Origin: an uncultured Planctomycetia bacterium
Lineage (GTDB): Bacteria > Omnitrophota > Gorgyraeia > 2-02-FULL-51-18
Length of the DNA: 64,000 nucleotides
Direction: 5' to 3'
Assembly (NCBI GenBank): GCA_964606485.1
Contig: CAZSGP010000004.1
Coordinates: 166,376 to 230,375 of the forward strand
The position numbers and the translations under genes were made by a program. The notes under the pieces were generated by a model that did not search any database, was not told the origin of the DNA, and saw nothing but the letters and a program-made list of their open reading frames with translations. The number at the start of each line of letters is the position of its first letter. Position 1 is the stretch's first letter. Below, piece after piece: positions 6,637-64,000 of the stretch.

Positions 6637-6637
6637 A

Positions 6638-7595: not shown

Positions 7596-7598
7596 GAT

Positions 7599-7911: not shown

Positions 7912-7988
7912 GGGCAATTAGCTCAGTTGGTTAGAGCGTTTCCTTGACATGGAAAAGGTCAGAGGTTCGAGTCCTCTATTGCCCACCA
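7912..7988 (+). tRNA. tRNA-Val (anticodon GAC), CCA encoded
   Basis: gggcaat acceptor, gctc/gagc D-stem, anticodon stem tttcc/ggaaa with loop uuGACau, T-arm agagg-ttcgagt-cctct, attgccc-a-cca. Confidence 0.88.
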
Positions 7989-8961: not shown

Positions 8962-9035
8962 ATTATGCATCTAGGGCCCGACTCCCATTTCAGGATGGGT
9001 ATGGTAGAATGGCGACCTAAAATTTAGGATTTAGA

Positions 9036-16087: not shown

Positions 16088-16094
16088 GAAAGTA

Positions 16095-16287
16095 CCCTGC
16101 GGTGCGCGTGGATCACGGGCGACTATTTTCGGATCCAATACATATCAACTTGGGGGCTAACGTTTAAAGCCTGTGTGCGGCCTGCTCTTCGGAGTAGGAT
16201 TCTAGCCTAATGGCTCTGACAGGTCCCCACCCTTATTCATAGGGTTCAGAAAAATCGCTACGGCACGGCACAGGCGGGGCTTTTTAA
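16095..16287 (+). ncRNA. candidate small structured RNA or long structured 5' leader of rarA
   Basis: ~190-nt GC-rich non-coding stretch downstream of a strong promoter; contains a UUCG-capped hairpin (ctgctc-ttcg-gagtag) and imperfectly complementary ends (ccctgcggtgcgcgtgg / ccacggcacaggcgggg); no match by eye to tmRNA, RNase P or tRNA. Confidence 0.25.
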
Positions 16288-17442: not shown

Positions 17443-17470
17443 TTTCCTGTTATCCTATCATCGGTATTTT

Positions 17471-19300: not shown

Positions 19301-19308
19301 AGGGGTTT

Positions 19309-27242: not shown

Positions 27243-30200
27243 ATGCAAAATGAGTCCATGAAATTAAAACCGTACAAAAGCCGCTGGTCGTGGCAGTTCA
27301 AATCAGTATCCGTACTGATCATCGGCACTTTTTTACTCCATGACTTAGCCTGGGGCGTGGATTCTGATTATTTAAGAAAAAATAAAGAACGCGATTCCGG
27401 CAATCTCTTCCTTCCTTCCTATCTTCAGAAAGCCAATAACGATCAACTTGAACGCATGAAAGCGCGCGAAGATTTGAACTTACTCTTCCAGTCCCTGCGC
27501 AGTGACGAATTCACCAAACAGCTTCGCTCGAAATCGCCCAAGTTTGAATCTCACGGCGAGGAAGATCGCAAGCCCGCGGCAGGCGGCAGCGGTAAGGGCG
27601 GCGGCGCATTCAATTATATGGTCACCTTCAATGAAGGCCGTCAGCCGGCCGAGCTTCAAGTTTTTGACCGCGCGAGTGACGGCTCTATCAATGCGACTTA
27701 TGTTTATCAGATTAATGGAAAAGACATCTCAAGTTTAACGCGTGATGCGGTGACTCAAACCACCAAAGATGGCGCGACCATTCGCGGTGGAAGCAAGAAA
27801 ATTGATCCGAAAGGCGCGGCAAGCCAATTGGAACTTGCAACCGTCATTCACTACGCTCAAGGAAAAAATTCGAAGGGCGAACGCTTTGTCGATTATGTGG
27901 AAAGCGCATTTGAAAATGGGAAATCCACGATGGTGCAAATGCATGAGCGTAGTAGCTCCGGGTTTTTAACCGGCGTTCAAACGTTTGATGTGAAAGATTC
28001 CGGGCTCGACACCGCGACAAATGCGTTTAAGACTCAGCTCTCCACCAATAACCTGATTCGCAGCGAAGTTTATGACGGCTCGGAAAAAGAACATTTACTG
28101 TATGCGTTTAGCGATTATGCGCTAGATGCGAACAACGTTGTGCGTCCCAATTCGTTTGAAGTGGCAAATTACGACGCGGCAGGAGTGCTTGAGTCCAAAA
28201 AAAGTTATGACATCAGTAGCTACGATCCCTCCAGTGCCGCGTGGACACAAATTCAAGCGGACTTGAGAGCGGGCGGTGTGGGCTATGAAAAAGATCTGCG
28301 TTCGGAGACCACGTTTACGGGTGCCGAAGATAACCGCGTTGAAGATCAAGTCTTTACTTATAAGGATGGCGAGATAATCGAGCGGCAGGATTTTGAATAC
28401 CGTAGTTTCAAAGATGCCAATACGGGCAAGACTCGCCTGGCGCTGGTCTCTAGCTTTTCGTTTGATGTCGATGACGCGACGCTTTCCGTAGGCGACCGCC
28501 GCAAGAAATCGTCCGGCCAAATTTTAGATCCCAATGGAGACCCAATCCCTGCCAATTTCACCGGCACGTTAAAAACGCAGAATGTTTTTGAGAACGGACA
28601 AGTGTCGCAGGTGTTTAGTTTTGGAATCGATGACAGCGGAAAATATTTTGTCGAAAGCCGCACGGATCATATCGTGGATTCGCTGGGCGCAAGAAAATCC
28701 TACATCTTTGATACGACTGGTTTATCGACGCGTGATGCTCGCCAAAAAATGAGCGGCGATCTTGTGATGGACGCTGCGGGAAATGTGATCAAAGGAATCT
28801 TTACCGGCGAATTGGTGAACGAAACGGTTTTAGAAATCTCTCGTGGTCAAGAGCGGGCCGCACTGCAATTGCTTTATGAGAAAGACGCGGCCGGCCGCTA
28901 CAGCCAAACTGAGCGACTCGATTTTAGTTACAGTCCGAGCGGCAAACTACTCGATACGGTTTCATACGACATCTCAGACTTATCCTTGGCTGACGGACGC
29001 CTTCGCGGAACGGGCGAGCAGGTGTCGCGTTCATTTTTTTCAGGGGTTGATCAGCAAATTCAGCGCATCGATTCGACGGGAGATATTGCGGTGGCGGACT
29101 TAGGGTCTAACACGCCGGTCGATCCGCGGGACATGGCAAGCGACCCCGGCGCGGTGGTGGTGTACGAAACCGGACATACGGGTGATCGGAATTTCATTAA
29201 ATCCATTTCTTTTACAGGCGGAATCAATTATCAATTTGAATACGACGCGGCTCACAACTTAGCCAGTGTTTATTTTTCTAGAAGCGGCGTTGCGTCAAAC
29301 GCCAACCACTTGGTGCGTTATGCGTACAGTGCCCTAAGCGGACAGTCGGTTTTAGATTTGGTGGCGACGACGAATCATTTAACCGTGCGCTACGCCTACC
29401 AAAATGGCCGCGTGATTTCGACCTCACAATTTGAAGACGCCAACGCCGACGGTATTTTAGACCCGACCGAAAGTGTGCGAAACGTCACCTACTACGATCT
29501 GAACGACTCGAGCGGCCGCAAAGTGTTGTTGTCGCGGCAGTATGTGGGCGGAACCACTTTTGCGCAAGTGCAAGGGGATCTACTGGCCACGATAACGGAT
29601 GCGACGAAGGTGAAGACGGAGAGTGTGTTTACGTATCAGGCGGCAGAGCCGGACCGCATCAATTTTATTACAACCTTTATGGGAGTAGCGTCGAGCGGAT
29701 TTGAGTTGTCTCGCAGTTTTAATTCAAATGACACTCAAAATCATGTGATGTACACCGAGCAATATGCGGGAGGGGACCCTAACCAAGTTCGGATGACGAG
29801 CTTCAACAATTATTCAGGCGGACGGGTGGAGTCGACGGTACAGATTCAGGGGAAAGTGGATTTTAGTAATGCGGTTGTCTCGGCGGCTCTTCAAGGAGAC
29901 CGCGTCATTAATGAGCAGGAAATCTTGGGAATTGCTGGGGCAGTTTCCTTTACGCAAAACTCTGGGATCAAGGGTTCTGAAAAAACAGATTTTGTTAGAA
30001 ACATTTCCGCGGGGCATTACACGACGCGCCAAACGTACCGCTACGATGTAGATTTGGACAGCGGACTTGATGAAATTACGACGCTCCGGGAAGACGGTTC
30101 GGTCGCGCTTAAAAATTTCTTTGTGGGATTTAGCGGAGAAGAAACGGCGGACTATTCTTATGCATACGCCAATGACGGCGTGACGGTTCGCAGTGTATCG

Positions 30201-57200: not shown

Positions 57201-60200
57201 AAGGAAGCGTCGTTCGAAGTTTCGCAATCAAATATTTTTGAAACTGCCCATCATACTGCACTCCAGTCATATTTTGAGTCACGAGGAACTTGGGGCGCTT
57301 ATCAATATTCCTCGGGTTGGTTTGGAAAGCCATTAGACCAGATGACTAGCAGTGATTACGAATGGGGATTTGGTAAAGGAGTTGCGGTAGTTGGCCTTTC
57401 TGTAGTCACCTTGGGCGCTTCACTCGCGGGAAATGTTGCTTATGCAACCGCATTTCTAAAAGCGGGGGTATCTGGAGCAGGCTTCAGCGCTTTTGGGGCA
57501 CTTGGGTCGAATGCAATTTCGTACTATAGAACCGGCCAATCCAATTTTAATGGCTATGATCTTTTAGGTTCTATGTTAAGCGGCTATGGCACCGGCGTTT
57601 TAATGGCCGGCGGTACGGCAGGAGCCGCCAAAGTTCTCGGAAATACTAGGATTGGTAATTATTTGTTCGCTTCCAATAGTAGTTCCGCCGCTCAAGCAGG
57701 AAGAAGCCAAGCAGGAGTTCTTGGAATGGCCTGGAGAGCCCGCACCGGCGTGGTCTACGGTTTATCCGGCGGCGGCATGAACGTCGCTCGTCACTATTTG
57801 AATTCCGCTGATGAAAAAGACTATAAACTAATTAGTTTTACAACGCTGGCGGATTTTGGAGTGGGCGCTGTTATTGGAGCTATTTTCGGCGCGGCAGTGG
57901 AACGATTCGGATTACTAAGCGGTACTCTTCGATCTGGAAATAGCGGAGTTGCTGTGGCAGTAAACAGGAGCGTGTCTTATGGCACCTTCATGCTGATGGG
58001 TTCCGTGGTAGGTATCGGCGGTGGAGTTTTCAATAACTTCATCAACAATGACGATCTTTCAAAAAATCTAGTTTCCAATATTTTGATTGGCGCGGTGCTT
58101 GGTGGCATTACACGGGCCTTGTTTGTGAATGTTGCTCCGAGTGCTGCCGCAGAAGCTGGAAACGGCCCACTGTCTGTTTACTCGAGCTCACGTTTTGCAC
58201 GCTTTAACCAGTGGATGAGCGAAAAAGCACTTTCCGCGTCTCCTTCCGGAAATGCCGCCGCGCAAAAATTCTGGCCTACCAATTTGAGAGAGGTTTGGAG
58301 CCAGTCAATGCAAATTCCGAGTCGTGCCTGGTCGAGTGTTGGCGGAATCTGGGGTATGGTTAGGGCCGGTTCTTATGGAGTGGTCGGTGCAACCGTCAAT
58401 GTCATTCGAGATTTCAGCTCTCTTAGAGAAAAAGATGGAACGATCAATTGGTCTAATGTATGGGTCTCGGCGGCGAGTGGTGCCTTAGCGGGAATTGTGT
58501 TGGGCTATGCACTGAGCGCAGTAGGCCGAAGCATGCAGAGCAATGCCTTAAACAAAGTGGAAAAATTAGCCAATTCGAACGAAGCAAAGATTTTCGATGT
58601 GGAAGCCCGCTTCACTACTACTGGGTTCAATCGTCTGAATTCTGTGCTCAATCGTCTAAATAAAGTAGAAGGCCCATTAGCACAGCTAAGGGCGGATATG
58701 GTTCATGGAGCCATTGAATGGATGGCCGTGTCGCCGGCGTTTACTGTCGCAGGTAAATTCTGGAGTTTCATGTTCGACGCGGTTCGCGCTCGCTTCGGCT
58801 CCACCGAAGAGTCCCGAACAGAAGCCGCAGATCGATTCTGGCAAACATGGGACTCTCTTTCTCTTAAGGAAACGTGGGTTAATCTCGGTTATGAATTAGC
58901 CGAAAGCGTGGTCACCGGGCCACAGCATGGATTTTATCTCAAGCCGGTTATCAATTTATTTACACCCAACGCGCCCAAAATAAACGCCGCACAAAACGCG
59001 GAATCGAAAACATGGTTTGAAAGAGTGTCGGACAGGCCGGTGTTGGGACGCGCCGTTAAAGCAACCGCATGGATGGGGCAACAATTCACCATGGCCTTAA
59101 CGGTGCAAGGCTTTGACATTGCCCTCAAGTCCATGTCGGATGATAAAGCCAATCTTGGATTCTCCGAAAGATCACGCGAGGTTTTGAGTTGGGCTTTGCT
59201 CTTTATCAAAGATTACACGCCCGGCCCTGAATTCAACGCAGCCTTTCTTGAAGGCTGGAGCCCGACCGCGCGCATGGCGTACCGCTATGCGGTGCTTGGC
59301 CGTTCCTCCGAAGCTTTGGATAAAGCCAATGAAGCCTTGAGTGGCCCGCTCGATGTTACAAGTGCCGTATGGCTTAATACCTACACCGGCGCTCGTTCCG
59401 AAGAGGCGGGTCGTTTTAAAATGACGGTTGAAGCGAGCTCGCTGGAAGCTGTGTCTACCGGAGATGCTTTTGAGCGGTTGTCTCAAGCTCAACAAGCCCT
59501 GAGTTCGGTGCCGCGGACGGATATTCATTCATTTAATAAAACGCTCGAGGCATTCTCGAAAGCTATTGAAAGCGCGGAAGCTGGATTGGGCGCCCAAGAT
59601 TCACGCGTTCAGGCGGCTAAATCTCAATTAGCCAAAGAAGCTAATTTCCTTTTAGGCTCAGCACTTCAGCGCTTAAGTACAGTGGGTCAACAGGATCTAG
59701 GTGGAGCTAAAACGATGGATGCTGCGCGCGCATCCTCTGAAGCTATTCGCGTGGGCGAATCCATTCTTGGGGCCAGTGACGCAAAAGTTAAAGAAGCTAA
59801 AGCCCGTTTTTCAGAGTTTGCAGTTCGCATTGCTCAAGACGCTGCGGGCGGCATCAACAATATCCGCAGTATGGCCGGCGCCAATATTTCCGATCTAGTC
59901 TTGTTGGCACGTTCGTTTTTTGGAGCCGCAGAGATTGCAACGACTCCGGAATCTGCAACCACTATTTTAAGAGCTATCTTTAATATGGGTCGGCATCTTT
60001 TAAGTTCATCGGTGTTGAACGAGATTGCAAAGCATCCGGACTTCGCAAATTCCATGGCCCAAATATTTTCTTCCATGTCTCAAAGTTTATTGGCGGCCAA
60101 TTTAACGGGTGTGGATCGCGCAACTTTATCGCAAGCGACCAATCAAATAGGGCTTCTTATTATTGGCGCTTCAAAGAGTGGTGTGCCGACATCCTTTACT

Positions 60201-63200
60201 CGCAAGAGCTTTAAAGATTTCCGCCAAGCCTACTCAGAAATGGCGACAGCCTTGAATACCATTGAGCAAATGGGCGCTTCTGCCGGGACGGTGAGAAGAG
60301 CCGCTTCAGAGCTTGGACGCTCGTATGAACGTTTTGTGGCAGTGGCTCAAGATAGCATTGTCTCAAACTTCAAAGACGTTGCATCGGTGTCCGAGCTTAC
60401 GGAGGGTTTAAGAGAAACCACCGAAGCCATGAGTTCAGTGTTCAAATTCATGAACCCCGAAACTGTCCGACGCGTCATGGCGTCTGATCGCGTGGATGTG
60501 ATCATGCACCAAGTTGAAATCGTGATGACTGAACAACTTGAGCAGGCCGTTAAAGGTCTTTCTAGTAAAAATGCCGATGAAGTTCAGGCCTCTCGGCAAG
60601 AACTGGGACGGATTGTGAAAGCTTTGGAAAATGCGCGGCTCTTTTTTGAGGGAGCCGGAACTTCAGGGCTTGTCGGCGACCGCAGAGGTGCCGCTGAAAC
60701 GGCGGAACGCATCACCGCGACGTTAAAATCCGTTTCGCGGAGAAATCCGGCGGCTAAAGACATGATTGCGGCTGAACGGGCCAAAATATCTCCAACGCAG
60801 TTGAATGTCGAGGCCATTTCTACACATGCGGTGGTTCGTCAAATCAATTCGGACATGGCAGTGGCCCAGGCGATTGCCGCAGGCTCCGGTGGAACAGAAA
60901 TGCTCCGCGGGTTAATCGGTAAGAGTCAGGCGAACTACATTCGCGGGGAACAGAATGGAACACGTTTTTCGCTAGAGCGTATCGCGGTTGTGCGAGCGAT
61001 TGAAAATAGAGTTCGCAGAGCCACCGAAGCTCGTGAGAAAGTTTCGAAGCGGCTTCAGGGAATGACCCGTGATCTAGGTAAATTAAACAAACAAATCGAA
61101 GAGCTCCGCTCCAAAAATTCCAGTGATCCTAAAGAGTTGGATAAACTGCGGAATCTGGAAAATTCCCGGGCGCAATTATTACTGCACGAGCTTTCCGTCA
61201 AGCATCGCGTGGCGGATTTGGAATACCGCGAGTCCATGGCCTTAGGACTGACGCCAAGCTTAACTGAAAAAATTGCGGAACGAGATGGGGTTGAACTCAA
61301 AAAAAATGCCCAGGAATATTTTGAACTCGCCGAAAAATTCTTAAAATCCGGTGATCTTGGACAACCCTTCACGCTAAAGGCCCTGAAAAAAGCGCATGAG
61401 CTTTTCGAAAAAAGCAGTGAGCGTTTTTCAGATACGACTAAACTTTACGAAGCCCAGTTCAATGACCCGGCGAATAAAGACGATGCGGCCCGTAAAACCA
61501 ATTTGATCGATGCGATGGCTAAATTTTCTCAGGAAGCTGTGAAATCGCTTCAATCCGCCGCTTCCGTTTTTGCATCAGCAAAAACGCTGGCGCGTTCCAT
61601 GCGCCTTCTCGCCCGCGCGGCAGCTTCCGAAGCCAAAAAAGCTAGAGTTGAAATCGATACTCTTTCAAAGGATGTAACCGCCGCACGCCGAGAAGAAACA
61701 CAGCTCGCGCAAGCTCGTATCAAAGTCGCGGAAGCAAAAATCGCGGCTCTCTCCGATAGAATTTCACGCACCGGCGCCTCGCTTAAAGAAGGGAGCGCAG
61801 ATCTAAAAGTAACCAAAGACAGAGTGACTCGTCAAAATCTAGAAGCGACCCTCAACAAAATTTCAAAAGATTTATTAAGCGACAGAATGGAACTTAAAAA
61901 AGTACAAGCCTCTATGGCGAAAGACAAAGAATTAATTTCTAAGCAACCGGAGGCGGTGTCTGCTATTGCATCCCTGACAAAAAGTGCCCGCGCTGCGGAT
62001 ATGAAATCAAAATCCTTAAAAGTCGGCATTAATTCTATAAATAAACAAGCCAAAGCGTTTATTGCCCAAAAATCAAAAGTCACCCAGGCGAAATTAAGCG
62101 TAGCGCTGCGCGCACAAAAAGCCGCGGACACATTGGCGGTCGCCGCAGGACGTCATTACACTCCAGAAGTGATGCAAGCCATCAAACAGCTTTGGCTCTC
62201 TCGCGCCGAGCAATCCATGTCACACGATGAAGCGCTACGCATTGCTTCCTCCGACATGGCCCCCACGGACTTAATTAGCATAGACGCCATTGGCGGAAAA
62301 ATTGAATTCCGCGCGGGTGATTTGAAAGCCGCCGCCACCGAAAAAGCATTGGCTAAAGAAATGCGAGATGCACATGGCGAAAATCCGATTGCCGCAGGAC
62401 TTCAGGCGCTCAAGCGCTATCGCAACGCTCCGGACTCGATCACAGTTCGCGACTCCCAGGGCCAGTTGCGCACTTTGGAATGGAGCGAAAATTTAGCCGA
62501 AGCCAATCAAAGGCTTTTGGCGCGCAATTTCTCTGCCAAAGCAGCTAATGCGACGAGTTTCCTTTTCGCAAGACCTGGAGACAAAATTGATCTCGTTGAT
62601 GGAAACGGTGCAGTCATAGAATCGGTGGATGTGACACGGACGATGAAAGACGCCGCCAATAAAACGTGGCAAGAACTCGTCTCCACAAGCCGTGGCTATC
62701 GCAATGTATTTAAAGCGGAAGCGGTGAAAGCGGCTGATAAAGAGCAAGCCGGTATCGAGCTACAAATTGCGTCGAGCGTTGGCACGGTCACCATCGATAA
62801 TTTTAATCGAATGATTGAAGTTTTTGACCGAATCGATCATCTGGAGAACTCAGGCCTGCTTCCTTCTTCAAGAAAAAATGAGTGGAATCTTAAAAAAGAC
62901 AATTTGATGATGCAGCTCGTCAGATTTCTGGATGCAGGAACCGGAAAAGAGCGCTCTTCACAGTCCCCCAAAGACGTCCTGCGTCAGAGTTTTGTAGATT
63001 TTATAAATCGCAATTCAATCACGGATCAAGAAACGGCGTTCTTTACAGTAATGGTGTCGATTGACCGCATGACGGGCGGGGATTTGATGAACAAACTCGG
63101 GGATGGCGCAGAAAGTTTTGAGAAGAAATTCGCAGACATTCAAAATCACGTAGTCACGGACGCGAAGGCTCAATTAGAAAGCAGCTCTTTGGCCCAGCGC

Positions 63201-64000
63201 CAGCAAGCCGTTCAACGCCTGGCCGATGTTCTTCGGTTTGATTCCACCGTCAAAGCCATTGGCGAATCGTTGCGTGCGGTGCTTCAGTCGGCGAGCCGCA
63301 CGAGCGACGTTAGTCTTGTGAGGAGTTTTGTTGAACGAGTTCGCTCTATTGAGCTTGAGACACAAGGTGAATTTATCAATGTGAAGGCCCAGATTTTGAA
63401 CGTACTGATCGGGCTTGCTTCTAATCAGCTGGATAAAGTGAAAGTTGACGTGTTTGGTTCAGATGCCAAACATGCCGATCAAAGCACTCTCGATTTCTTA
63501 AACAGTCTTCCCGACGGCTTCCGCAAAGAAGCAGCCTACGCAGCGTTTGAGGCAAAGATTGCCATGTCCGACCGCGCGGCTGAAATTCATAACACCAATG
63601 CTTGGATCAACGAGGCGGTCCGGGAATTTGATGCCATAAATTTAAAACGGGTCAACGCGGGCATTGAGAAAAATAGCGAAGCCAAACTTAATGAAAAATT
63701 ACAAGCTGGAATAGATATCGAAACCGCTATTAAAGAGTTGCAGGGTAGCTCTCTGACCCCGGAACAAGCGAACGATCTTTCACAAAAACTCACAGCAGCC
63801 CGTTTAAAGAAAGCGAGCCTGGATCAGGATGCCGAGCTTCGTGCAATGGAAGCGACCGTCACTGCGCGATCAGAAAGCATTTATGGATGGAAAGGGCGCT
63901 TGGCGCTTTGGTTGTCAAAAGGCTCGCGCTTTGAACGGATTGAACGGTTGATGTTGAGCCTAGCGGGACGGTTTGCCGGAGCGCGTGTTATTGAAATAAA
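27243..64000 (+). CDS. giant multidomain repeat protein (>12,250 aa; 3' end beyond window)
   Basis: No stop in frame 0 from ATG 27243 to 64000 (no plus-strand frame-0 ORF boundaries in the supplied track; spot translations at 27.2, 30-41.6, 47.5-60 kb read as continuous sensible protein); N-terminal signal-anchor MQNESMKLKPYKSRWSWQFKSVSVLIIGTFLLHDLAWG; preceded by a 184-bp AT-rich spacer. Confidence 0.8.
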   Translation, partial: MQNESMKLKPYKSRWSWQFKSVSVLIIGTFLLHDLAWGVDSDYLRKNKERDSGNLFLPSYLQKANNDQLERMKAREDLNLLFQSLRSDEFTKQLRSKSPKFESHGEEDRKPAAGGSGKGGGAFNYMVTFNEGRQPAELQVFDRASDGSINATYVYQINGKDISSLTRDAVTQTTKDGATIRGGSKKIDPKGAASQLELATVIHYAQGKNSKGERFVDYVESAFENGKSTMVQMHERSSSGFLTGVQTFDVKDSGLDTATNAFKTQLSTNNLIRSEVYDGSEKEHLLYAFSDYALDANNVVRPNSFEVANYDAAGVLESKKSYDISSYDPSSAAWTQIQADLRAGGVGYEKDLRSETTFTGAEDNRVEDQVFTYKDGEIIERQDFEYRSFKDANTGKTRLALVSSFSFDVDDATLSVGDRRKKSSGQILDPNGDPIPANFTGTLKTQNVFENGQVSQVFSFGIDDSGKYFVESRTDHIVDSLGARKSYIFDTTGLSTRDARQKMSGDLVMDAAGNVIKGIFTGELVNETVLEISRGQERAALQLLYEKDAAGRYSQTERLDFSYSPSGKLLDTVSYDISDLSLADGRLRGTGEQVSRSFFSGVDQQIQRIDSTGDIAVADLGSNTPVDPRDMASDPGAVVVYETGHTGDRNFIKSISFTGGINYQFEYDAAHNLASVYFSRSGVASNANHLVRYAYSALSGQSVLDLVATTNHLTVRYAYQNGRVISTSQFEDANADGILDPTESVRNVTYYDLNDSSGRKVLLSRQYVGGTTFAQVQGDLLATITDATKVKTESVFTYQAAEPDRINFITTFMGVASSGFELSRSFNSNDTQNHVMYTEQYAGGDPNQVRMTSFNNYSGGRVESTVQIQGKVDFSNAVVSAALQGDRVINEQEILGIAGAVSFTQNSGIKGSEKTDFVRNISAGHYTTRQTYRYDVDLDSGLDEITTLREDGSVALKNFFVGFSGEETADYSYAYANDGVTVRSVSVNFYGGNLRAQNAASKDAMVRSESYEVSELSLISTAVRRSATVFAGARGEEVADYSTSFAQDGTTVRNISVNFYQGNLRAANASTSDALSRSDSHDASDISQVTTANRRASTFFAGERGEEIPDYTYGYAPDGTTVRNVSVNFYDGNVRAQNATTRQALVRSDSHQTTDISQITATNRKSSTFFVGDKSEEIADYSTSFAADGVTVRNISVNYYEGNVRAANASTDDAMVRSDSHETTDIAQVSIANRRNSTFFVGKKGDEIADYSYGYANDGNAVRNVSVNFYTGNVRATNATPNDAMVRSESYRTTDIAQIATGNRSAATFFVGEKGNEIADYSYSYAIDGSTVRNVSVNFYAGGVRASSASVDDALLRSDSHDTADIAAITTANRRSSTFFAGNRGDEISDYSASYASDGTTVRNISVNFYEGDRRAINASAEDALIRSDVHMANTIGQVSQTNRRSSTFFAGTRGSEIADYSYSYAPDGIAINSVSINFYQGDLRAQDASVNDALVRSDAHETSDIVQARPANRKSSTFFAGARGEEIADYSYSYAPDGVTIRNVSVNFYEGNLRASDASTNDALVQSDSHETTDILQVGTANRRSSTFFAGAQGEEIADYSYGYGANGTAVRNVSINFYEGDRRAIDASSEDKLVRSDSHQTSTLAQSTQANRRSSTFFAGARGQEIADYSTSYANDGTTVRNVSINFYEGELRASVAASSSALIRSDSYETTAVGVASLFVQDRRSSTFFVGTRGEEIADYSMSYAPDGTTVRNVSVNFYEGDVRAANASVNDALVRSDSHQAAGIGQITQGNRKSSTFFDGDRGEEIADYSYSYATDGTTVRNVSVNFYQGDVRADAASVNDALVRSDSHQTTTIAQVSGTNRRGSTFFIGDRGSEIADYSYGYAANGTTVRNVSVNFYEGDRRAIDASPDHALVQSDSHEASDILQIATANRRSSTFFAGDQGSEIADYSYSYASNGSTVRNVSVNFYEGNQRATNADVEDALIRSDSHQASVIGQVTQANRKSSTFFAGVRGEEIADYSYSYANDGNTVRNVSVNFYEGDVRAANALISNALARSDSHQVSNIAQISTLNRKSSTFFSGTRGEEIADYSYSYAPDGTTVRNVSVNIYQGDVRATNASVNDALLRSDSHQATDIAQITDANRKTSTFFTGTRGEEIANYSYAYGNDGTTIRTVSVNFYNGNLRATDASPDDALVRSDSHQATGIGQITQANRKSSTFFAGDRGDEIADYSYSYATDGITVRNVSVNIYQGNIRATNASADDALIRSDSHDATDMSGATQANRRSSTFFAGLRGDEIADYSYSYATDGTTVNSVSINFYQGGVRAAAASVNDALIRSDSHQATAIGQVTQGNRRSSTFFTGTRGDEIADYSYSYATDGITVRNVSINFYEGDVRAINASVNDALIRSDSHEATAIGQITQANRRSSTFFVGVRGDEIADYSKSYGNDGVTVRGVSVNFYSGNQRAAKAASNDALVRTDSHQVTDILQVDLLNRKNSTFFAGIRGEEIADYSTSYAPNGVTIRNISINFYEGDVRAADASVNNALIRSDSHLADAIGQVNQANRRSSTFFKGVRGEEIADISTNYAPDGITVRNVSINIYEGELRAENASVSDALIRSDSYETTAAGVVSLFVTDRRSSTFFTGTRGEEIANYSYSYATDGVTVRNVSINFYQGDVRAVDATVNDALVRSDSHETTAIGAVTAQNRRSSTFFAGVRGEEIADYSYGYASDGTTVRNVSINFYQGSLRAAVASVNDALIYSDSHQADGISAANTQNRKNTTFFAGPRGEEIADYSTSYATDGTTVKNISVNFYQGNVRALNAAPKDSLIRSDSHEAGSLGAVNIQNRTSSTFFAGIRGEEIADYSTSYAPDGTTIRTVSVNIYRGDLRAKDASVSDALIRSDSHQTTDILQISNSNRKSSTFFAGSRGEEIADYSYSYAANGTTVRNVSINFYQGDLRAAAASVNDALIRSDSHETSAIGAATTQNRRSSTFFAGVRGEEIADYSYSYATDGITIRNVSVNIYEGDLRAEDASTTTTLVRSDSHQTDDILKVATTNRRSSTFFAGDRGNEIADYSTSYAANGTTVRNVSINFYQGDRRANLASLDDALVRSDSHEVSDIAQIAVTNRKSSTFFAGLRGEEIADYSYSYAKDGATVKNVSVNFYQGDVRASNASVNDVLLRSDSHEAGSIQAVGVQNRKSSTFFTGNRGDEIANYSTSFAADGVTVRNISVNFYQGNVRSAQATSNDALIRSDSHEVSDIAQITPANRKSATFFAGKRGEEIADYSYSYAPDGTTVRNVSVNIYQGDLRAKDASVNDALIRSDSHQVTDIGQIAQANRRNSTFFFGSRGEEIADYSYAYGNDGVIVRNVSVNIYQGNVRAMNASSSDALLRSDSHEAGEILQVSDANRKSSTFFTGSRGEEIADYSYGYAKDGLTVKNVSVNFYQGDKRAIDASVNDALLRSDSHQAKSLGEAIQANRKSSTFFVGARGEEIADTSVSYAKDGVTSRSISINYYQGDIRAVNASVNDALVRSDNFEASGTGAISLLLQNRRSSTFFTGTRGEEIADYSYSYAPDGTTVRNVSVNIYQGDVRATNASVNDALLRSDSHQATAIGQVTQANRRNSTFFVGGRGAEISDYSASYGSDGVTIRSIALNFYEGNHRAMDATSDDALVRSDNHEATAIGLVSQANRRGSTYFAGVRGEEIADFSYGYGSDGNTVKNVSVNFYQGSLRAADASANDALIYSDSHEAADISRVGTSNRKSSTFFAGPRGDEIADYSYSYDKDGTTVKNVSINFYQGDLRAQDASSNDALIRSDSHETTSVTSVNMSNRKSSTYFAGSRSQEIADYSYSYATDGTTVKNVSINFYQGDKRAIDASVNDALLRSDSHQTTDYTLAAFSNRRSSTFFAGDRGNEIADYSYSYAGNGTTVRNVSINFYLGGLRAVDASFDEALIRSDSHQATDITQITQATRRSSTFFRGNHGDEIADYSYAYGNDGTTVRNVSVNYYTGNLRAANASANDALLRSDSHQVTDIAQVDVTNRKSSTFFVGAKGDEIADYSVSFAKDGTTAKNVSLNFYEGNVRASNASVNDALIRSDSYETTATGVASLLITSRRSSTFFTGTRGDEVADYSYSYNNDGVTVRNVSVNFYTGNARASNAAASDALLRSDSHQTTDISQIATTNRKNSTFFAGPRGEEIADYSYSYATDGSTVKNVSVNFYQGDIRASNASVNDALVRSDSHQATAIGQITQANRRNSTFFFGVRGDEIADYSYGYGSDGSSVRNVSINFYQGNLRAALASSTDAMVHTDSHQTTDITLAALANRKSTTFFAGARGDETADYSYAYGTDGTTVRNVSVNFYEGDVRASNASANDALLRSDSHQTTDISLITTTNRKSSNYFVGSRGDEIADYAYSYAADGITVKNVSVNFYQGNVRAAVASANAGMNRNDAMIRSDSHETTAIASVSVANRRSSTFFAGPRSEEIADYSYSYATDGATVKNVSVNYYQGNVRATVASTNDALMRSDSHQATDIAQIAQLNRKSSTFFAGSRGDEIADYSYAYGNDGATVKNVSVNFYEGNLRATNATPNDAMIRSDSHQTTDIAQIAVGNRRSSTFFVGSRGDEIADYSYAYGTNGTTVRNVSINFYTGNVRAVNASINNAMVRTDSHQTASLAQVATANRRNSTFFVGPRGDEIADYSYSYAKDGATVRNVSVNTYQGNVRASVASSNDALVRSDSHQTTSISQISTANRRSTTFFTGTRGDELSDYSHSYGTDGTTVVASTLFIRDAANALVESVNYSNKITRDISKNVVDALNSATALIETSRDYWKGSQGFEVRDLSAFYSYDDSGNKSIDRTQIYYYFIDDNDNNQIDATDGNGQLDAGEPSGKRAHEVTPDDLEMGSRTYVGDLTYFQTVRTILGRDTLGRVTSYREEGRDQSGTFFSENRSDITYIGDTENTFSFKATRRDGEITSHFEMRNMVYDERNRLRSSERVDVEPATGSADTMLDRVMVTKTINDYDSQPGFVVVTSNSYGISAQGTLSTSNSQTKFKLTGDAFTQPLFISGSNTDYHLVEDNGNVFNLRSLLTSGSQNSPALSDGFGLLDGYDTAAANGGNWFGFLTADPNPGTRNLTLNGLTIRVGSVSGVETVSQTYSADGNPDRQVERFFTGTGAGKIVNTTRETVNHYVSPQPASRLTQLGLPSGFKIIGDRMTTDFYDSSAQAKSVNTVVFKTTGIDNPVTAPSLMESNRTVTFLTDGTTQSTENHTYTYKAYANRGAAVSTDADLKPFDVHHEITQEIIERSPTGAVFNAGDQANQKQTINYARDAIGNLMFTDRMNDNDPSSRSVEFAGMDADIMNAASEILDAQHVQISGNGGTQSITDAFGNRMEYDAQGAPNQYIEASGNVLLTANLSAVMTDTDPLFQNYRYTITENLGNGLTRSFSYGLNNPSEAQAVFERYAQFAANWKWNNASTSRVYSGADTSLSGYSIHYNPSGFPDKILNGSNAINTVQFLAGTGTETTAFATPLSATPASSLSPGAFRLVVNNRTLLYGTLPMVSVNTSNNVTSRVVTDPGFDWEVEFMMMAQFTIKNFGFSTGSFAGNGVGAAVSLTGVTQNGTNIIQGTFLNSQNQLQVTDSRSGETFTVSTASVNGQADLARQLAMAALGSGTQTTWNGSRATGRAGNIYYAADFDTASAIPSNLATTIYRTDASRTQNQGALFNIERINTAGADPTKTLVKLTSLADHTVTYISYDQFGQREMILRLKNGTNISQFVANGEASLSQASVQDSLKTLATSNTFESVEFNQNIRHDNGFAQIIRQGFQSALDSNITRLDSNGNALTGVTTYSENQMFGPSGRILSSSSTRHEVGSGVDLTTVNKSQFSYDAQGNLMAQSARETQNGTNVGNNMSNPSNPTFAINNVSKITVLKGVKLDSLGQRVTMDFSSRQSGQGMLSSGQMDPRSFGGSFDHDQTLIQTLGTVTQPNGLDAFGRLVSSTTQEREFFGDRNGSRTVGETKTEMNGIAYDTLNQMAAFQKTVAKNGQWVDIVLDAAGSLLPVMNFLSNVEQTDQVSTPDSRGRISTRTTMTTRDNAILIPNRDWNNSTAVAGGGDLLDSTHGVMIGGKHYFVFAYGGGSLELYSGEGIRTIAPRQLSGALALGQHQTIQLADAGIYYDVYNQGDYFVLTPKGNFGSQAEANAAAALRYTTTTETRAGPLALSANSTFNSQYAVTPSGGISYDNFSRLQGFADTTTVTLFGNFATYNDHAFSANHAQMTYAHLSGSMTQPHWTNPFWADGATGETASSGPPSVTRIHSTQDIRYDAAGRQLSLTDINIENGSRLVNGTSQTYRTESVTRRTDMRYDSQGRLDSYRDTRSSNTDKSITVTDRTSTQYDSSGQVSGFEEVNHTTGFDAAGRLLNPADTTKTSALAMNFTSTVRQSNLRYDTLGRLISSLRTVASQGQMAFSEFTRYIVYDLNSNAVDTITSSTQLVAVPASDPQAYAQFLSTLPNGSGQQYTDGIFAADNGQQGYFGALTAAPVITGSVATLSFNVNLYQGGTASITNRRFSTLYRAVGTNRTQSIFDTFGNAVKQITSVQQVVQTSAGFAGCDGYGQLVYHAPTYATTYQTVSIIQTTFNSLNQIVTRVIQQFSKAFNNFVKLVVDIIHQSGFVYDSYNRIVNYSTYQFINTPGTRGTNVWTRVTQSYNAFNQQIFESTSATQITKSKKGSFRITQTTNTQTNTATVFNSYGQVANTLSREVFRQEFIKSKGTGFAKLYSNSTFAAVVSIVAVLAVVVSYGAASAALGALSALSSASGASAVGITAGVGTSAGSSAAASGTFAGSSSFAAGQSINPLMTYYSSFTYFSIFDDQRTSIAQLIELAPRDGDEMSRFGQIWNYTIIAATVISGVVLSVVTFGAGTPLAIVLNALVAAAVTAVIQSANAVVQTEVMGQSSKGVWGKVAVQVATSFAAAFFASAIQWVGLGANVAGGEGIVASMINEGATVAATTLVGGTANYLYLKHEGESNQKILRQLSTGFAISLAVTVLMAGLTGALGGDLAKKDVLQPGLYIDNNKLSAVGGQFYTRLGNALFTNEMFLKSIGMNEDFGRAFSAATEAVMAVANSLIPNEKDPTSEDWSKALANAPSGAFDFAAQFMKGFLARLAGSFADKIVENNTKLIIGGIFSIASAVTQFATVFLNMIEQMSKLIASDGKNQDADKTGRGNEQEKNAGKKALDPSSTVLKAFEEAAQFIEDFFGNIPVITPILQTVMMAAGAAAATFTSAVMAAVAVGQKLVDTAISFGSVFVFAAKAIFGDKEKKEANWKEAGDALQGVFSGILNTVIAAIQFPFKVLSDAITGLAETLVKFISIFGKDFAKDLKININKIAGGAVTTLTVLLINTSQNSDDANDNAQSGLNKLQSLSKNLADDFNSSDGSHGAETVEAIQIRAGNVTKILGALRDKGWLRADTVSSALDVLNALNKINYAKLSVENAIKLSGILIQTRLEMYGMALAAGIMTPGLLGDFIQSTLEQMGALFSTDRMDWETYNKLKGEIVNYIQTADPKMVAEQKGRINQFFNNAVAGLVALQKSGKQMKTLSLGTDESELEDAIFNTEGMAALVLKSDLSANGDFIKKFAETLKDPNNKLDAKVLLSAVLSTLGPAREMLKLALIDGNISQEESLEIINMVADGLNGLAPLFENKNEAIQKAAETVLGQANALLEKVNPEYLKTTQGQRLLTVIATVERASGKAVLTSEASSAESLRPTAMSLSEKFLKNHSEMKSILAISRGRFETVEVKDQTLKDARGNVIKDSEGNEKKFSGIALKDRKTGELLRDNNGNLKMAVRSIAGDSFVVEVRTAQGAEGRSGAGSSNDDLSELASKGFRLTKIGEENGVVRYQAFALVDGAQMLHDGAQFNPFTAGSDLEVQSGIMVNGDLIESTTSTDYVHIQIGKNGRAEILNSGFITVATEFNGQQANLRISYEKGGKISGGQALIFGDDKPVDLTAIAGGKEFVIARGSTPLLSLDNRETTFMDSLGLSVTRSLHSDLVGFTREGKSLELLSSKGEVETRLGFQVGGEGSSSAEVPVFRPELGLGNYNVYVQGKNYYEVSLNKDSRMLAVGGELKPTALGAGGQGSPINIFAKNAAGSLVPVGHSEVDVQANGFPVGGENFTRVAQRIQFNDDVDDATKSLCRDTLKMDSEILVSSKGVSTFRVDRNSQGAISMLSYFGEVSADTMASSAAGLADMGIRLKGVNADGQTMISQIDEKGYAGTMTILNSKFISENPGAPIDAKILMPDGTSKNISINSQTLIRSTGAVNYIPDNDDGRPFEYRTGDVFSSYEVAGVNADQAKVVKSSLATLGLRQTENTAAIVRTGAPDETGKVSDIIVGTGRFDAQGNLSWVLPAGQQDRIEKISANGAAVSFIAGANEVREIDAATHTDRIDFEMNAVTAQKVTEADFNEAKQMAIQFGLRAPPDDIADGAPRVLFSANGAQITATYHASFNELDGRPTGFMLDKGQDGQVAKFLGLTEYTFPFSTSANTLLPAEQNELTSILSLAHDAMTGKNQNLKLVYNDDHTALTIENKRENGLTVFTTLDSQNPQPVYELSAGGEKHTLSRETDGFLYITAQDGQRMVLDLGKQIIPNQAREKITVDNLRVDGMTLDGAFFGAYTVRGDKNRVVQILGGAGGAAGTSPQGLASKGEVFNSDVEDQNGNLHTALIGINGTFAYLGNEVKFKEPGSELLVRYNDAGVEGLFSDNRRVYEGTVGFSQSGMDFSVDTIADIIREGDTIIFGSYVNSDGVKGFALEPGQEKAIASFLNITEEKLSEKLKEQPATLAGRVAMAQTLGNVQLLHAAVGMKEKIGVKDIPLVSDEAALNTAIENLDHKALAGMVGNISAIKAISARQNDVLGFGEFKITVAQLASDPALAKDADFLSFASNVLALSDNQVKVVKVGGVDRSVVPQSAWTLAEMVRTADLEGVTAAVSYASLVLAAAGHQKFIESQGLGGMNATLNGLLDLARFGLIGGDYAFMSAAAQTIQAGLGALDQKQNEDATRSRFNALEDPKMKLNASVYSFHLDEALAAFEKGDLAAFSQKFQIAQQGLGLLAAIENKQVSIAAFDQAGLHDMTINFGYLLDDAKVAYGQGNFESFAKKFEMIQGGFALLEMKKNEAKVNGRFDTQGLSSAKDVYNRETALAIKAYAQDDEEAFANHFGKSQAGLSLLAIAEARVQAPDNLKKAGLGALESAWKKSFSSASDAYGKPDATEFEKAMGELNVIGLGVAAVLTKKVPAATAQKAVEDYLNTGLTKEVRGAALNFLQDVTQASHQVSVDSVTGSVSVLARSDANKSVSRQYDSSGKRQGSSVIFTPDPATTEKGITLSFDKEDNLVGPIEPHSLTLYGRSVTIESRESTVNGAKQFRAVLHMDVTSENPLETNLKNLPAGMDSLKFTGPMALVVNANGSFTVESKFITAKIENGEYQLCQTAIVNWQGDSLSIERGRMNVTDGATFEIGATGLAHYTDPTGGSGPTSNAKLPDKSIHASQSADGTVTLSKGAIEIRNNAVVVTEGQQFIVDGLIKNFKIGNSLIGDKGEQGSLIYTSVNGVARLVQWGQVMGALTGQENDLLAAVEKVASELSSPVGRIYHASVDKQASALKEKISGLKESLKNQSAETRKTLVIQFLRGVENIEISAYTNFFETSAGSREIKEGASTVGVRILDILNYDKKDSKIWGYEATHALDKDKNFEASLRKTGDVVSEETKIFLSVALGNADEADKFLNTDSASKVKIFEKMADQAWNDANKMVERFMGHPKESAYHAAYEYALELRADAGDFKNAIGKYKSGESSLFELMHQASSLKGEGDASIIGAGDKLRLEKKEKTFAALLGDALPIPHTNAEIAGIFSKAFRTGNLQGIETALTLQGIWSTSGQLVELIKKGGTKEQKAAIAANRWRDADIGADETVASETAVLRDKFSAHKDKNFNRTDTIQTVYEVLVADPSLYKEASFEVSQSNIFETAHHTALQSYFESRGTWGAYQYSSGWFGKPLDQMTSSDYEWGFGKGVAVVGLSVVTLGASLAGNVAYATAFLKAGVSGAGFSAFGALGSNAISYYRTGQSNFNGYDLLGSMLSGYGTGVLMAGGTAGAAKVLGNTRIGNYLFASNSSSAAQAGRSQAGVLGMAWRARTGVVYGLSGGGMNVARHYLNSADEKDYKLISFTTLADFGVGAVIGAIFGAAVERFGLLSGTLRSGNSGVAVAVNRSVSYGTFMLMGSVVGIGGGVFNNFINNDDLSKNLVSNILIGAVLGGITRALFVNVAPSAAAEAGNGPLSVYSSSRFARFNQWMSEKALSASPSGNAAAQKFWPTNLREVWSQSMQIPSRAWSSVGGIWGMVRAGSYGVVGATVNVIRDFSSLREKDGTINWSNVWVSAASGALAGIVLGYALSAVGRSMQSNALNKVEKLANSNEAKIFDVEARFTTTGFNRLNSVLNRLNKVEGPLAQLRADMVHGAIEWMAVSPAFTVAGKFWSFMFDAVRARFGSTEESRTEAADRFWQTWDSLSLKETWVNLGYELAESVVTGPQHGFYLKPVINLFTPNAPKINAAQNAESKTWFERVSDRPVLGRAVKATAWMGQQFTMALTVQGFDIALKSMSDDKANLGFSERSREVLSWALLFIKDYTPGPEFNAAFLEGWSPTARMAYRYAVLGRSSEALDKANEALSGPLDVTSAVWLNTYTGARSEEAGRFKMTVEASSLEAVSTGDAFERLSQAQQALSSVPRTDIHSFNKTLEAFSKAIESAEAGLGAQDSRVQAAKSQLAKEANFLLGSALQRLSTVGQQDLGGAKTMDAARASSEAIRVGESILGASDAKVKEAKARFSEFAVRIAQDAAGGINNIRSMAGANISDLVLLARSFFGAAEIATTPESATTILRAIFNMGRHLLSSSVLNEIAKHPDFANSMAQIFSSMSQSLLAANLTGVDRATLSQATNQIGLLIIGASKSGVPTSFTRKSFKDFRQAYSEMATALNTIEQMGASAGTVRRAASELGRSYERFVAVAQDSIVSNFKDVASVSELTEGLRETTEAMSSVFKFMNPETVRRVMASDRVDVIMHQVEIVMTEQLEQAVKGLSSKNADEVQASRQELGRIVKALENARLFFEGAGTSGLVGDRRGAAETAERITATLKSVSRRNPAAKDMIAAERAKISPTQLNVEAISTHAVVRQINSDMAVAQAIAAGSGGTEMLRGLIGKSQANYIRGEQNGTRFSLERIAVVRAIENRVRRATEAREKVSKRLQGMTRDLGKLNKQIEELRSKNSSDPKELDKLRNLENSRAQLLLHELSVKHRVADLEYRESMALGLTPSLTEKIAERDGVELKKNAQEYFELAEKFLKSGDLGQPFTLKALKKAHELFEKSSERFSDTTKLYEAQFNDPANKDDAARKTNLIDAMAKFSQEAVKSLQSAASVFASAKTLARSMRLLARAAASEAKKARVEIDTLSKDVTAARREETQLAQARIKVAEAKIAALSDRISRTGASLKEGSADLKVTKDRVTRQNLEATLNKISKDLLSDRMELKKVQASMAKDKELISKQPEAVSAIASLTKSARAADMKSKSLKVGINSINKQAKAFIAQKSKVTQAKLSVALRAQKAADTLAVAAGRHYTPEVMQAIKQLWLSRAEQSMSHDEALRIASSDMAPTDLISIDAIGGKIEFRAGDLKAAATEKALAKEMRDAHGENPIAAGLQALKRYRNAPDSITVRDSQGQLRTLEWSENLAEANQRLLARNFSAKAANATSFLFARPGDKIDLVDGNGAVIESVDVTRTMKDAANKTWQELVSTSRGYRNVFKAEAVKAADKEQAGIELQIASSVGTVTIDNFNRMIEVFDRIDHLENSGLLPSSRKNEWNLKKDNLMMQLVRFLDAGTGKERSSQSPKDVLRQSFVDFINRNSITDQETAFFTVMVSIDRMTGGDLMNKLGDGAESFEKKFADIQNHVVTDAKAQLESSSLAQRQQAVQRLADVLRFDSTVKAIGESLRAVLQSASRTSDVSLVRSFVERVRSIELETQGEFINVKAQILNVLIGLASNQLDKVKVDVFGSDAKHADQSTLDFLNSLPDGFRKEAAYAAFEAKIAMSDRAAEIHNTNAWINEAVREFDAINLKRVNAGIEKNSEAKLNEKLQAGIDIETAIKELQGSSLTPEQANDLSQKLTAARLKKASLDQDAELRAMEATVTARSESIYGWKGRLALWLSKGSRFERIERLMLSLAGRFAGARVIEI
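30090..41570 (+). repeat. in-frame tandem array of about 55 units of 210 nt (70 aa) inside the giant CDS
   Basis: Consensus unit SDSHxTTDIAQIxxANRRSSTFFAGxRGEEIADYSYSYAxDGTTVRNVSVNFYxGxVRAxNASVNDALIR; the NFY codon recurs every 210 nt (30201, 30411, 30621, 30831, 31041 ...), with occasional 72-aa units. Confidence 0.92.
46170..46590 (+). other. cluster of RHS/YD-type repeats within the giant protein
   Basis: IRYDAAGRQLSL, MRYDSQGRLDSY, TQYDSSGQVSGF, LRYDTLGRLISS spaced ~20-40 aa apart (YDxxGRL consensus). Confidence 0.6.
47559..48385 (+). other. Gly/Ala/Ser-rich hydrophobic block 1 of giant protein (predicted multiple TM or membrane-inserting helices)
   Basis: FAAVVSIVAVLAVVVSYGAASAALGALSALS..., IIAATVISGVVLSVVTFGAGTPLAIVLNALVAAAVTAVI, VAVQVATSFAAAFFASAIQWVGLGANVAGG, FAISLAVTVLMAGLTGALGG. 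Confidence 0.55.
57361..58165 (+). other. Gly-rich hydrophobic block 2 of giant protein (GxxxG/glycine-zipper-like helices)
   Basis: GVAVVGLSVVTLGASLAGNVAYATAFLKAGVSGAGFSAFGALG..., FGVGAVIGAIFGAAV, GTFMLMGSVVGIGGGVF, ILIGAVLGGITRALFV. Confidence 0.55.

Follow-up and report, generated by a model that had tools for sequence, protein, structure and literature searches.

Open reading frames (ORFs) that exceed 20 kb are present in the majority of genomes in several Omnitrophota classes, and their products contain few domains with annotation and show poor conservation (PMC10066038). These giant proteins carry many transmembrane (TM) helices and large extracellular parts, and they were proposed to be adhesins or coats that degrade the surface of prey (PMC10066038). 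For instance, 42 TM helices are present in a protein of 39,678 amino acids (aa) from Velamenicoccus archaeovorus, and the peptides of this protein showed a 3-fold enrichment in attached cells (PMC10066038). Here we describe a giant gene in a stretch of 64,000 nucleotides (nt) of contig CAZSGP010000004.1 (positions 166,376 to 230,375; hereafter the window), where a single ORF starts at position 27243, stays open to the end of the window and encodes at least 12,252 residues, including an array of 55 tandem repeats.

A preprint (bioRxiv 10.1101/2023.11.21.568195) reports completed Omnitrophota genes encoding up to 85,804 aa, with numerous TM regions and divergent SecA_DEAD domains. It defines two classes of giants, 'Archaeovorin' and 'Dockerin-type', and predicts in other Omnitrophota giants a hollow antiparallel beta-helix 'tubule' of ~1,500 aa that is RHS-like. 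Proteins of at least 10,000 aa were found in 93.8% of 176 complete Omnitrophota genomes, the largest having 147,155 aa (bioRxiv 10.64898/2026.06.07.730766). In the accompanying catalogue of 916 such proteins, 39% combine a signal peptide with TM helices (SP+TM), 15% are 'Pfam-dark' and the mean number of TM helices is 22; when 5,761 proteins of this size were clustered, 80% of the clusters were singletons (bioRxiv 10.64898/2026.06.07.730766). Although the Omnitrophota giants are amply documented, their function is unexplained and the majority are unique in sequence. An earlier reading of the window, made from its letters without database searches (hereafter the sequence-only reading), had called genes of this size very rare. 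This holds in general but not in the Omnitrophota, where 94% of complete genomes hold a protein of at least 10,000 aa.

A single reading frame of at least 12,252 codons

The visible 5' part of the giant ORF (27243..64000, + strand) starts with the ATG at 27243, the closest in-frame stop upstream being at 27204, and is free of stop codons up to its last full codon (base 63998). Its 3' end lies beyond the window. Given the base composition of the window, a stop-free run of 12,252 codons has a probability of ~1e-281, and the ORF scan found nothing of comparable length in the other frames across 27-64 kb. We compared the codon usage of twelve 3-kb tiles with a reference of nine upstream housekeeping and efflux genes. 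Frame 0 was the best fit in 12 out of 12 tiles, with a log-likelihood per codon of -3.93 to -4.08 against -4.25 to -4.64 for the other frames. The sequence-only reading had proposed one giant ORF that continues past the window and had named in-frame stops among the findings that would break it; with none in the 12,252 codons and codon usage that is host-like throughout, we agree with it.

A second assembly covers the 5' part of the gene. A Logan short-read contig (run SRR12487046) is identical to window 12884-33533 along 20,650 nt (0 mismatches) and confirms residues 1-2097; the Logan gene call is a 2,097-residue product cut at the contig end. Exact look-ups for a longer overlap returned only this 20.6-kb contig and no extension of the gene past the window. 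The whole visible product has only 3 cysteines. One minus-strand stretch in the window stays open for at least 300 codons (32190-33143, 318 codons). It lies within the repeat array and is most likely a by-product of the biased codon composition of the repeats, not a gene.

An array of 55 predicted beta-hairpin repeats

Residues 951-4795 (30093..41627, + strand) form an array of tandem YD-like repeats of 70 aa, 3,845 aa long in total, with the consensus TANRRSSTFFAGERGEEIADYSYSYAKDGTTVRNVSVNFYEGDVRAANASVNDALVRSDSHEATDIAQ. A hidden Markov model (HMM) built from the sequence recovers exactly 55 units of ~70 aa, spaced by 68-77 aa, and the corresponding DNA period is 210 nt. The copies share on average 63% of their nucleotides (maximum 89%) and ~66% of their residues. 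Identity at codon positions 1, 2 and 3 is 73, 81 and 40%, and synonymous sites are near saturation. Because DNA identity is this low and the differences fall mainly on third positions, the copies must be old and the encoded protein under purifying selection, which rules out a recent expansion or collapse of the array. A BLAST self-comparison found no internal repeats elsewhere in the protein.

Only one exact DNA repeat of at least 60 nt is present in the giant gene. It is 143 nt long, and its two copies (33504-33646 and 37926-38068, + strand) lie in units 17 and 38, that is, 4,422 nt or 21 repeat units apart and in frame. It is because of this repeat that the short-read assembly stops: the Logan contig ends at 33533, 30 nt into the first copy. 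The duplicate may be a recent gene-conversion tract. It is also the single site where a short-read assembly could miscount the repeats through an in-frame mis-join; such a mis-join would keep the frame, and the open frame is therefore unaffected. With this caveat, the HMM confirms the ~55 tandem repeats that had been counted in the sequence-only reading. The gene thereby illustrates how giants are lost from short-read metagenome-assembled genomes (MAGs), as its contig halts 30 nt into a 143-nt repeat.

We modelled four repeats with AlphaFold2 (AF2) from 25 in-register rows of a multiple sequence alignment (MSA). The model reached a predicted local distance difference test score (pLDDT) of 94.1 and a predicted template modelling score (pTM) of 0.86, with four antiparallel beta-strands and one short helical turn in each repeat. 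In a Foldseek comparison with the PDB, the only two matches at E <1e-3 were Tse5 and teneurin-4. MORN-repeat proteins were also among several PDB matches and ranked at the top in a viral structure library. Searches by sequence gave little: in the PDB, three segments of the protein had no match and the repeat profile returned one weak spurious match (E 0.12), and Pfam, NCBIfam and PHROGs returned only spurious cumulative matches to the repeats (EpmC, RVT_N, REV3_N and others), none of which had a significant stretch. Judged from the model, the array folds as a continuous sheet of beta-hairpins of the YD/MORN type, with ~220 predicted strands for 55 units, and the periodic array probably forms an extended ribbon or tube. 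As a clean, periodic module modelled with high confidence and present in 55 copies, it may be amenable to expression and structure solution.

Leader, head and YD region

The protein begins with a leader (27243..27359, + strand; aa 1-39) that comprises KPYKSRWSW, a hydrophobic core of 12 residues and LAWG|VD, with a hydropathy peak at aa 21-39. The pattern KP[FY]KSRW, a hydrophobic region (h-region), AxA and then (K)FLPRYL is kept in 12 syntenic relatives, among them two, L004 and L025, whose giants are otherwise unrelated to the window protein. Because the h-region is short and followed by an AxA/AWG-type site, and because these features are conserved in relatives, the leader is probably a cleavable Sec signal peptide. 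It had been described as a signal-anchor in the sequence-only reading: a secretion signal it appears to be, but of the cleavable rather than the anchoring type. A fuller form of the motif can be written from the giants of L002-L025 and window 27243-27450, as KP[FY]KSRW(S/P)x(W/L)xK-h-region-(D/E)xxxAA(D/E) followed by (K)FLPRYLxEQQxKHE. The motif bears a faint likeness to the KxYKxGKxW signal peptide of Gram-positive accessory-Sec adhesins, but no NCBIfam match backs it.

The leader is followed by a head (27360..30092, + strand; aa 40-950) that includes the FLPxYL motif. The head is the most widely conserved part among the relatives (25-38% identity, E 1e-20 to 1e-116), and it has no known domain, with no match in Pfam, NCBIfam, PHROGs or the PDB. 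A homologue search with aa 1-1370 and 5800-6770, whose candidate list saturated at 8,000, gave no match, but homologues of the N-terminus do occur in MAG loci. The sequence-only reading had placed YD-like motifs in this N-terminal region of ~940 aa. We found no enrichment there (1 canonical motif in aa 40-950, 0.4 expected).

Such motifs are instead concentrated after the array, in a non-periodic, beta-leaning region with divergent YD/RHS-type repeats (41628..47522, + strand; aa 4796-6760). It contains 13 strict YD motifs where 0.7 are expected, an 18-fold enrichment (e.g., MRYDSQGRL and LRYDTLGRLI), which upholds the long beta-rich YD-like part seen in the sequence-only reading. Similarity to known families is at or below threshold, with Pfam RHS_repeat at 22.0, 20.1 and 16.8 bits and TIGR01643 at 16.9 bits. 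When aa 6300-7499 were searched with HMMER against 1.84 billion representative proteins, only two matched, both of them YD-repeat proteins that align in the YD region. Neither a DPxG[LWIV] nor a PxxxxDPxG motif occurs in the 12,252 aa, and no Rhs-core domain was matched in NCBIfam or Pfam. GC skew is negative in the window only within 32-47 kb, which corresponds to the repeat array and the YD region, presumably owing to amino-acid composition.

Two hydrophobic clusters and the C-terminal part

The YD region is directly followed by hydrophobic cluster 1 (47523..49442, + strand; aa 6761-7400), which consists of Gly/Ala-rich predicted TM helices between aa 6773 and 7337 and a Ser/Ala/Gly linker. 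We predicted seven strong and two to three weaker helices (Kyte-Doolittle peaks of 1.5-2.4 in a 19-residue window). An exhaustive HMMER search of 1.84 billion proteins found no homologue of this cluster. The next 2,640 residues (49443..57362, + strand; aa 7401-10040) are a Lys/Glu-rich mixed region with no known domain. By composition it is helical at aa 7400-7780, 8800-9300 and 9600-10040 and beta-leaning at aa 7780-8800 and 9300-9600, so the ~3,000-aa alpha-helical region of the sequence-only reading stands as helical stretches but not as a wholly helical one. About five helical repeats of ~58 aa can be seen by eye at window ~54285-55112 (aa ~9015-9290; e.g., '...FEKGDLAAFSQKFQIAQQGLGLLAAIENK' and '...GNFESFAKKFEMIQGGFALLEMKKNE'), along with a weak autocorrelation at lag 57/58; they are too diverged for BLAST self-comparison.

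Hydrophobic cluster 2 (57363..58532, + strand; aa 10041-10430) has four strong and one weaker Gly-rich predicted TM helices, which brings the hydropathy peaks to 11 strong and 3-4 weaker ones and agrees with the two Gly-rich hydrophobic blocks reported earlier. A helix-leaning tail rich in Ala, Leu, Lys, Glu and Arg (58533..63998, + strand; aa 10431-12252) continues past the window end. Tiled searches of aa 6761-12252 found no match in Pfam, NCBIfam, PHROGs or the PDB; the tail gave only a weak NCBIfam 'helix-rich protein' match. The last 1,200 aa had no match in a 5.8-billion protein index, in genome contigs or in metagenome contigs. Across the visible 12,252 aa, Pfam and NCBIfam tiles contained no enzyme, toxin, Rhs-core or SecA domain. 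The HExxH, LPXTG and TSP3 motifs are absent, and Walker A and DEAD occur only as isolated chance matches. Tiled Pfam, NCBIfam and PHROGs searches and motif scans are thus in line with the earlier statement that no catalytic motif is recognisable.

The basic residues change along the protein. The K/(K+R) ratio is ~0.1-0.3 ahead of cluster 1 and ~0.7 directly past it, and the switch lies at aa ~6760-7000 (window 47.5 kb). The ~6,000 aa that would be exported contain 0.6-2.8% K and ~7-8% R; this part is lysine-poor, acidic and rich in Ser, Thr and Asn. Because the switch sits at cluster 1, it fits a change of cellular compartment at this point of the chain.

Relatives at the same locus

We found 25 relatives of the second permease of the RND efflux operon upstream of the giant gene in GTDB species genomes, with 32-71% identity, and every one comes from a MAG labelled Candidatus Omnitrophota or 'uncultured Planctomycetia'. 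Beyond these there is one relative, a Saprospiraceae locus with 27% identity. The order PheS-PheT-coiled-coil protein-MgsA-OEP-MFP-RND-RND-giant (OEP, outer membrane efflux protein; MFP, membrane fusion protein) is likewise common to Omnitrophota MAGs. The adjacent pump is 65-71% identical to pumps of Omnitrophota MAGs and, together with this shared gene order, places the host in Candidatus Omnitrophota. In at least 12 of these MAGs, the RND operon is followed by a long ORF, nearly always running off the contig end, which answers the suggestion in the sequence-only reading that related MAGs be searched for syntenic giant genes. Most of them share homology with the window protein in the head (25-38% identity, E down to 1e-116) and/or in the repeats.

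Some relatives carry additional domains after the shared part. In L013 (14727-23108) a matrixin (Peptidase_M10, E 4e-19) and a domain of the Ig-like type (He_PIG) lie after the repeats. The homologue in L020 (13335-20051) is 2,239 aa long and has bacterial TSP3 repeats (TSP3_bac, E 1.5e-34) after the stalk; it apparently ends at a stop 200 nt before the contig end. Because the same stalk carries a matrixin in one relative and TSP3 repeats in the other, these modules suggest a stalk with an exchangeable tip or cargo. The slot 3' of the RND operon can also hold unrelated giants that have only the leader motif in common with the window protein, as in L025 (13531-18618) and L004 (8318-17992). The L025 giant contains, at aa 867-1359, the trio SecA_DEAD/SecA_PP_bind/P-loop_SecA, which is characteristic of giants described in the literature. 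We considered adjacency to the RND genes as a sign of functional coupling and set it aside, since the whole order from PheS to the giant is conserved. The subfamily can be traced across MAGs by its leader, its head and its fixed locus after an MdtABC-like RND operon, despite the truncated genes.

A candidate cell-anchored contact fibre

By analogy with the described Omnitrophota giants, we lean cautiously towards reading the window protein as a membrane-anchored SP+TM giant that acts as a contact fibre, fixed to its own cell and serving attachment to host or prey. In such a scheme, the Sec-type leader would export the N-terminal ~6,700 residues, as the sequence suggests. The exported part would comprise the head of ~900 aa, the 55 units of 70 aa and the ~2,000 aa of divergent YD repeats. 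The units would stack into one antiparallel beta-sheet of ~220 strands, comparable to the wall of an Rhs/teneurin shell but strictly periodic, and the resulting long rigid fibre would end distally in the conserved head. Cluster 1, with ~8 TM helices, would stop transfer and anchor the fibre in the cytoplasmic membrane of the producer. The lysine-rich middle part of 2,640 aa, cluster 2 with its 4-5 helices and a helical tail spanning at least 1,800 aa would form a cell-side base that continues past the window. With a surface fibre of this kind, an ultra-small epibiont or predator would be able to fasten itself to a larger host or prey cell, and in some relatives the same stalk would bear a hydrolytic or calcium-binding module.

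Several observations weigh against this proposal. The function is assigned by analogy because the domain libraries returned nothing for adhesion, lectins, hydrolases or secretion in the visible 12,252 residues, and the part of the gene beyond the window could hold enzymatic modules that change the picture. The scheme leaves unexplained how ~6,700 residues would pass the outer membrane. The flank 5' of the first TM helix is rich in Lys and Arg, a poor fit to a simple stop-transfer sequence. The TM and topology calls come from hydropathy and composition only; the exact number of helices is not fixed by them, and neither, therefore, is the membrane side of the middle part. The AF2 model spans four repeats and does not fix fibre length or the choice between ribbon and tube, and a run on 10 repeats with a mis-registered MSA gave a pLDDT of 30. 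Finally, many other giants are flanked by type II secretion system (T2SS) or pilus genes, whereas no type II secretion, pilus or glycoside-hydrolase genes occur in the 27 kb upstream of this one.

The visible part is repetitive, rigid-looking and free of binding or catalytic domains, as would be expected of a passive envelope coat or spacer without specific binding to a partner cell, of the kind proposed for the 'velamen' of Velamenicoccus. We regard this as doubtful but worth keeping in mind: a conserved, non-repetitive head of 900 aa at the distal end points to a function at the tip, the protease and TSP3 modules of relatives point to a specific function, and expression of the V. archaeovorus giant protein is higher in attached cells (PMC10066038). 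An unlikely variant of the fibre is a hollow conduit, in which the exported ~6,700 aa, mainly the array, wind into an RHS-like beta-tube of about cell length that is rooted in the ~8-helix cluster and joins the epibiont to its host so that material can be transferred, its passage of the outer membrane possibly helped by the adjacent TolC/MFP/RND genes. Hollow RHS-like tubules of ~1,500 aa are predicted in other giants (bioRxiv 10.1101/2023.11.21.568195); the array of 3,845 aa has the same strand-rich repeats with short helical turns, the exported beta part abuts a multi-helix membrane cluster, and the order OEP-MFP-RND-RND-giant is conserved. However, the geometry of the model covers no more than four repeats, the RND linkage belongs to the wider PheS-to-giant order and by itself is no sign of coupling, and transport through such a tube is without precedent or experimental evidence. 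If the conduit were real, the subfamily with the KP[FY]KSRW leader would be a single-polypeptide intercellular conduit and not a mere adhesin.

The sequence-only reading had proposed attachment or contact-dependent delivery. Attachment is the role favoured in the literature (PMC10066038; bioRxiv 10.1101/2023.11.21.568195), whereas toxin delivery is not supported. Delivery of the Rhs/Tc type would have a YD shell enclosing a C-terminal effector and Gly-rich blocks entering the target membrane. It would account for the enrichment of YD motifs in aa 4796-6760, the weak RHS_repeat and TIGR01643 matches, the type VI secretion system (T6SS) Rhs effectors and teneurins that are the best PDB matches of the repeat model, and the direct contact between cluster 1 and the YD region. 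We nevertheless hold it to be very unlikely, and the toxin-encapsulating shell of the earlier reading is not upheld. The visible ORF has no Rhs core or DPxGL-type autoprotease motif, neither it nor the upstream genes encode a toxin, PAAR, VgrG or TcB-like domain, and no T6SS genes lie nearby, in the 27 kb upstream. Moreover, 55 units plus ~2,000 aa of YD repeats amount to several times the sheet of the matched Rhs effectors (~1,000-1,400 aa), and a further ~5,500 residues with a second TM cluster follow the YD region, unlike in any Rhs effector. A strictly periodic array of 55 units would be more in keeping with an open, extended sheet or tube than with a closed cocoon. The idea that the hydrophobic blocks insert into a target membrane is also not supported; anchors of the producer's own are the simpler account, in line with the SP+TM architecture of 39% of Omnitrophota giants and with the Lys/Arg switch exactly at the first block. 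Least probable of all, and only just worth entertaining, is that the frame arose from mis-joined or collapsed repeats, or that the gene is decaying and no longer expressed as one product. The in-frame 143-nt repeat (33504 and 37926) does break short-read assembly and a mis-join there might alter the number of repeats, there is no support from an independent assembly past residue 2,097, and the homologous gene has frame breaks in the relatives L006, L014 and L016. Yet a mis-join at this repeat keeps the frame and cannot have made the ORF. The improbability of the stop-free run (P ~1e-281), the match of frame 0 to host codon usage in all tiles, the conservation of the repeats as protein while they diverged at synonymous sites, and the 7,400 non-repetitive residues 3' of the array all argue for an intact gene.

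Upstream genes

A tripartite RND efflux operon with an MdtABC-like layout (17369..27058, + strand) ends 184 nt before the giant ORF. It consists of an OEP/TolC-like gene (17369, or 17513, to 19300; Pfam OEP), an HlyD-type MFP gene (19309-20508; Pfam HlyD_D23) and two genes for AcrB-type RND permeases (20505-23708 and 23705-27058; Pfam ACR_tran, E 1e-204 to 1e-240), all on the + strand. The efflux operon that the sequence-only reading had placed directly 5' of the giant ORF is thus present. A promoter and terminator scan of the 184-nt gap found sites no more numerous than in shuffled sequences. RND, efflux or TolC neighbours are not mentioned in the three papers on Omnitrophota giants (PMC10066038, bioRxiv 10.1101/2023.11.21.568195 and bioRxiv 10.64898/2026.06.07.730766).

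The 27 kb upstream encode MnmG, ParA, ParB, Ndk, YicC, Gmk, CoaC/CoaB, three tRNAs, ThrRS, IF3, PheS/PheT, 6S RNA, MgsA and the RND operon, and all credible genes in the window, including the giant ORF, are on the + strand. MnmG(GidA), ParA and ParB (window 228-3932) are the usual origin-proximal trio. Because they open the window and all genes share one strand, the giant gene is probably situated ~27 kb from the origin and transcribed in the direction of replication.

The 6S (SsrS) RNA gene (16091-16284, + strand; 58.9 bits for Rfam RF00013, whose gathering score is 46.4) sits between a conserved coiled-coil ORF (15055-16053) and the gene for an MgsA-type AAA+ ATPase, which starts at 16288. 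Three tRNA genes lie at 7348-7419, 7438-7520 and 7912-7988 (+ strand). A mechanically called ORF at 7308-7856 (+ strand) overlaps the genes for tRNA-Cys and tRNA-Leu, and its GIY-YIG match is limited to aa 99-167. Because of this overlap and the C-terminal position of the domain, the real GIY-YIG gene probably starts past 7520. The CoaC-like (Flavoprotein, 6103-6636) and CoaB-like (DFP, 6728-7333) ORFs are separate, with ~90 nt between them, and do not form one coaBC gene; the split could be natural or due to a frameshift.

Comparison with known systems

The type-I-secreted adhesins of the LapA/RTX kind are, like the window protein, very long repetitive surface proteins encoded beside genes for an outer-membrane factor and an MFP. 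They differ in that the window partners are RND permeases (ACR_tran) and not an ABC transporter, and in that the window protein carries a Sec-type leader at its N-terminus and TM clusters within the chain. Pfam tiles of the visible ORF gave no match to RTX/HemolysinCabind or Ig-like repeats. MORN proteins and single-layer hairpin proteins (e.g., OspA-type sheets) resemble the window repeats in the local geometry of the hairpin sheet. There is no sequence relationship to MORN, whose unit is ~23 aa compared with 70 aa and four strands here, and TM-scores are low (~0.2).

The Rhs/YD proteins (Tse5, 8cp6; Salmonella bongori Rhs, 8qjc; TcB-TcC; teneurins) build a continuous antiparallel sheet from beta-hairpin repeats, as is predicted for the window protein. 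In structure, the repeat model comes closest to Rhs effectors and teneurins, and aa 4796-6760 of the window protein contain canonical xYDxxGR[LI] motifs, although the Pfam similarity is at or below threshold only. Unlike these proteins, the window protein has no core autoprotease, N-terminal plug, PAAR/VgrG link or toxin. Its repeats are strictly periodic and several-fold more numerous, and they are followed by membrane helices and thousands of further residues.

The closest described systems are the SP+TM giants of the Omnitrophota. The visible 12,252 aa differ from many of them by the lack of SecA_DEAD, C39/S8 peptidase, glycosyl-hydrolase/-transferase, dockerin and TSP3 domains. No tile of aa 1-12252 matched in Pfam the SecA_DEAD or SecA preprotein-binding domain, which occurs in most but not all Omnitrophota giants. 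Likewise, the visible part contains none of the 'Archaeovorin' domains (glycosyl transferase/hydrolase, methyltransferase, peptidase, NUDIX) and none of the 'Dockerin-type' features, with no match to PF00404 or PF18884 and no DxDxDG motif. Instead of T2SS or pilus genes, the gene has an RND efflux operon and housekeeping genes as neighbours, and the array of 55 units of 70 aa is longer than the ~1,500-aa tubule described earlier (bioRxiv 10.1101/2023.11.21.568195). The likenesses are broader. The window protein belongs to the same phylum, exceeds 10,000 aa and shows the features of the class, namely a leader with an AxA-type site and two TM clusters, the latter called from hydropathy. Like the SP+TM giants, it has an unannotatable and poorly conserved sequence and a long RHS-like beta region, and its gene is cut at contig ends in short-read MAGs. 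It is a sequence-orphan example of these already catalogued giants, and the existing picture of them stands.

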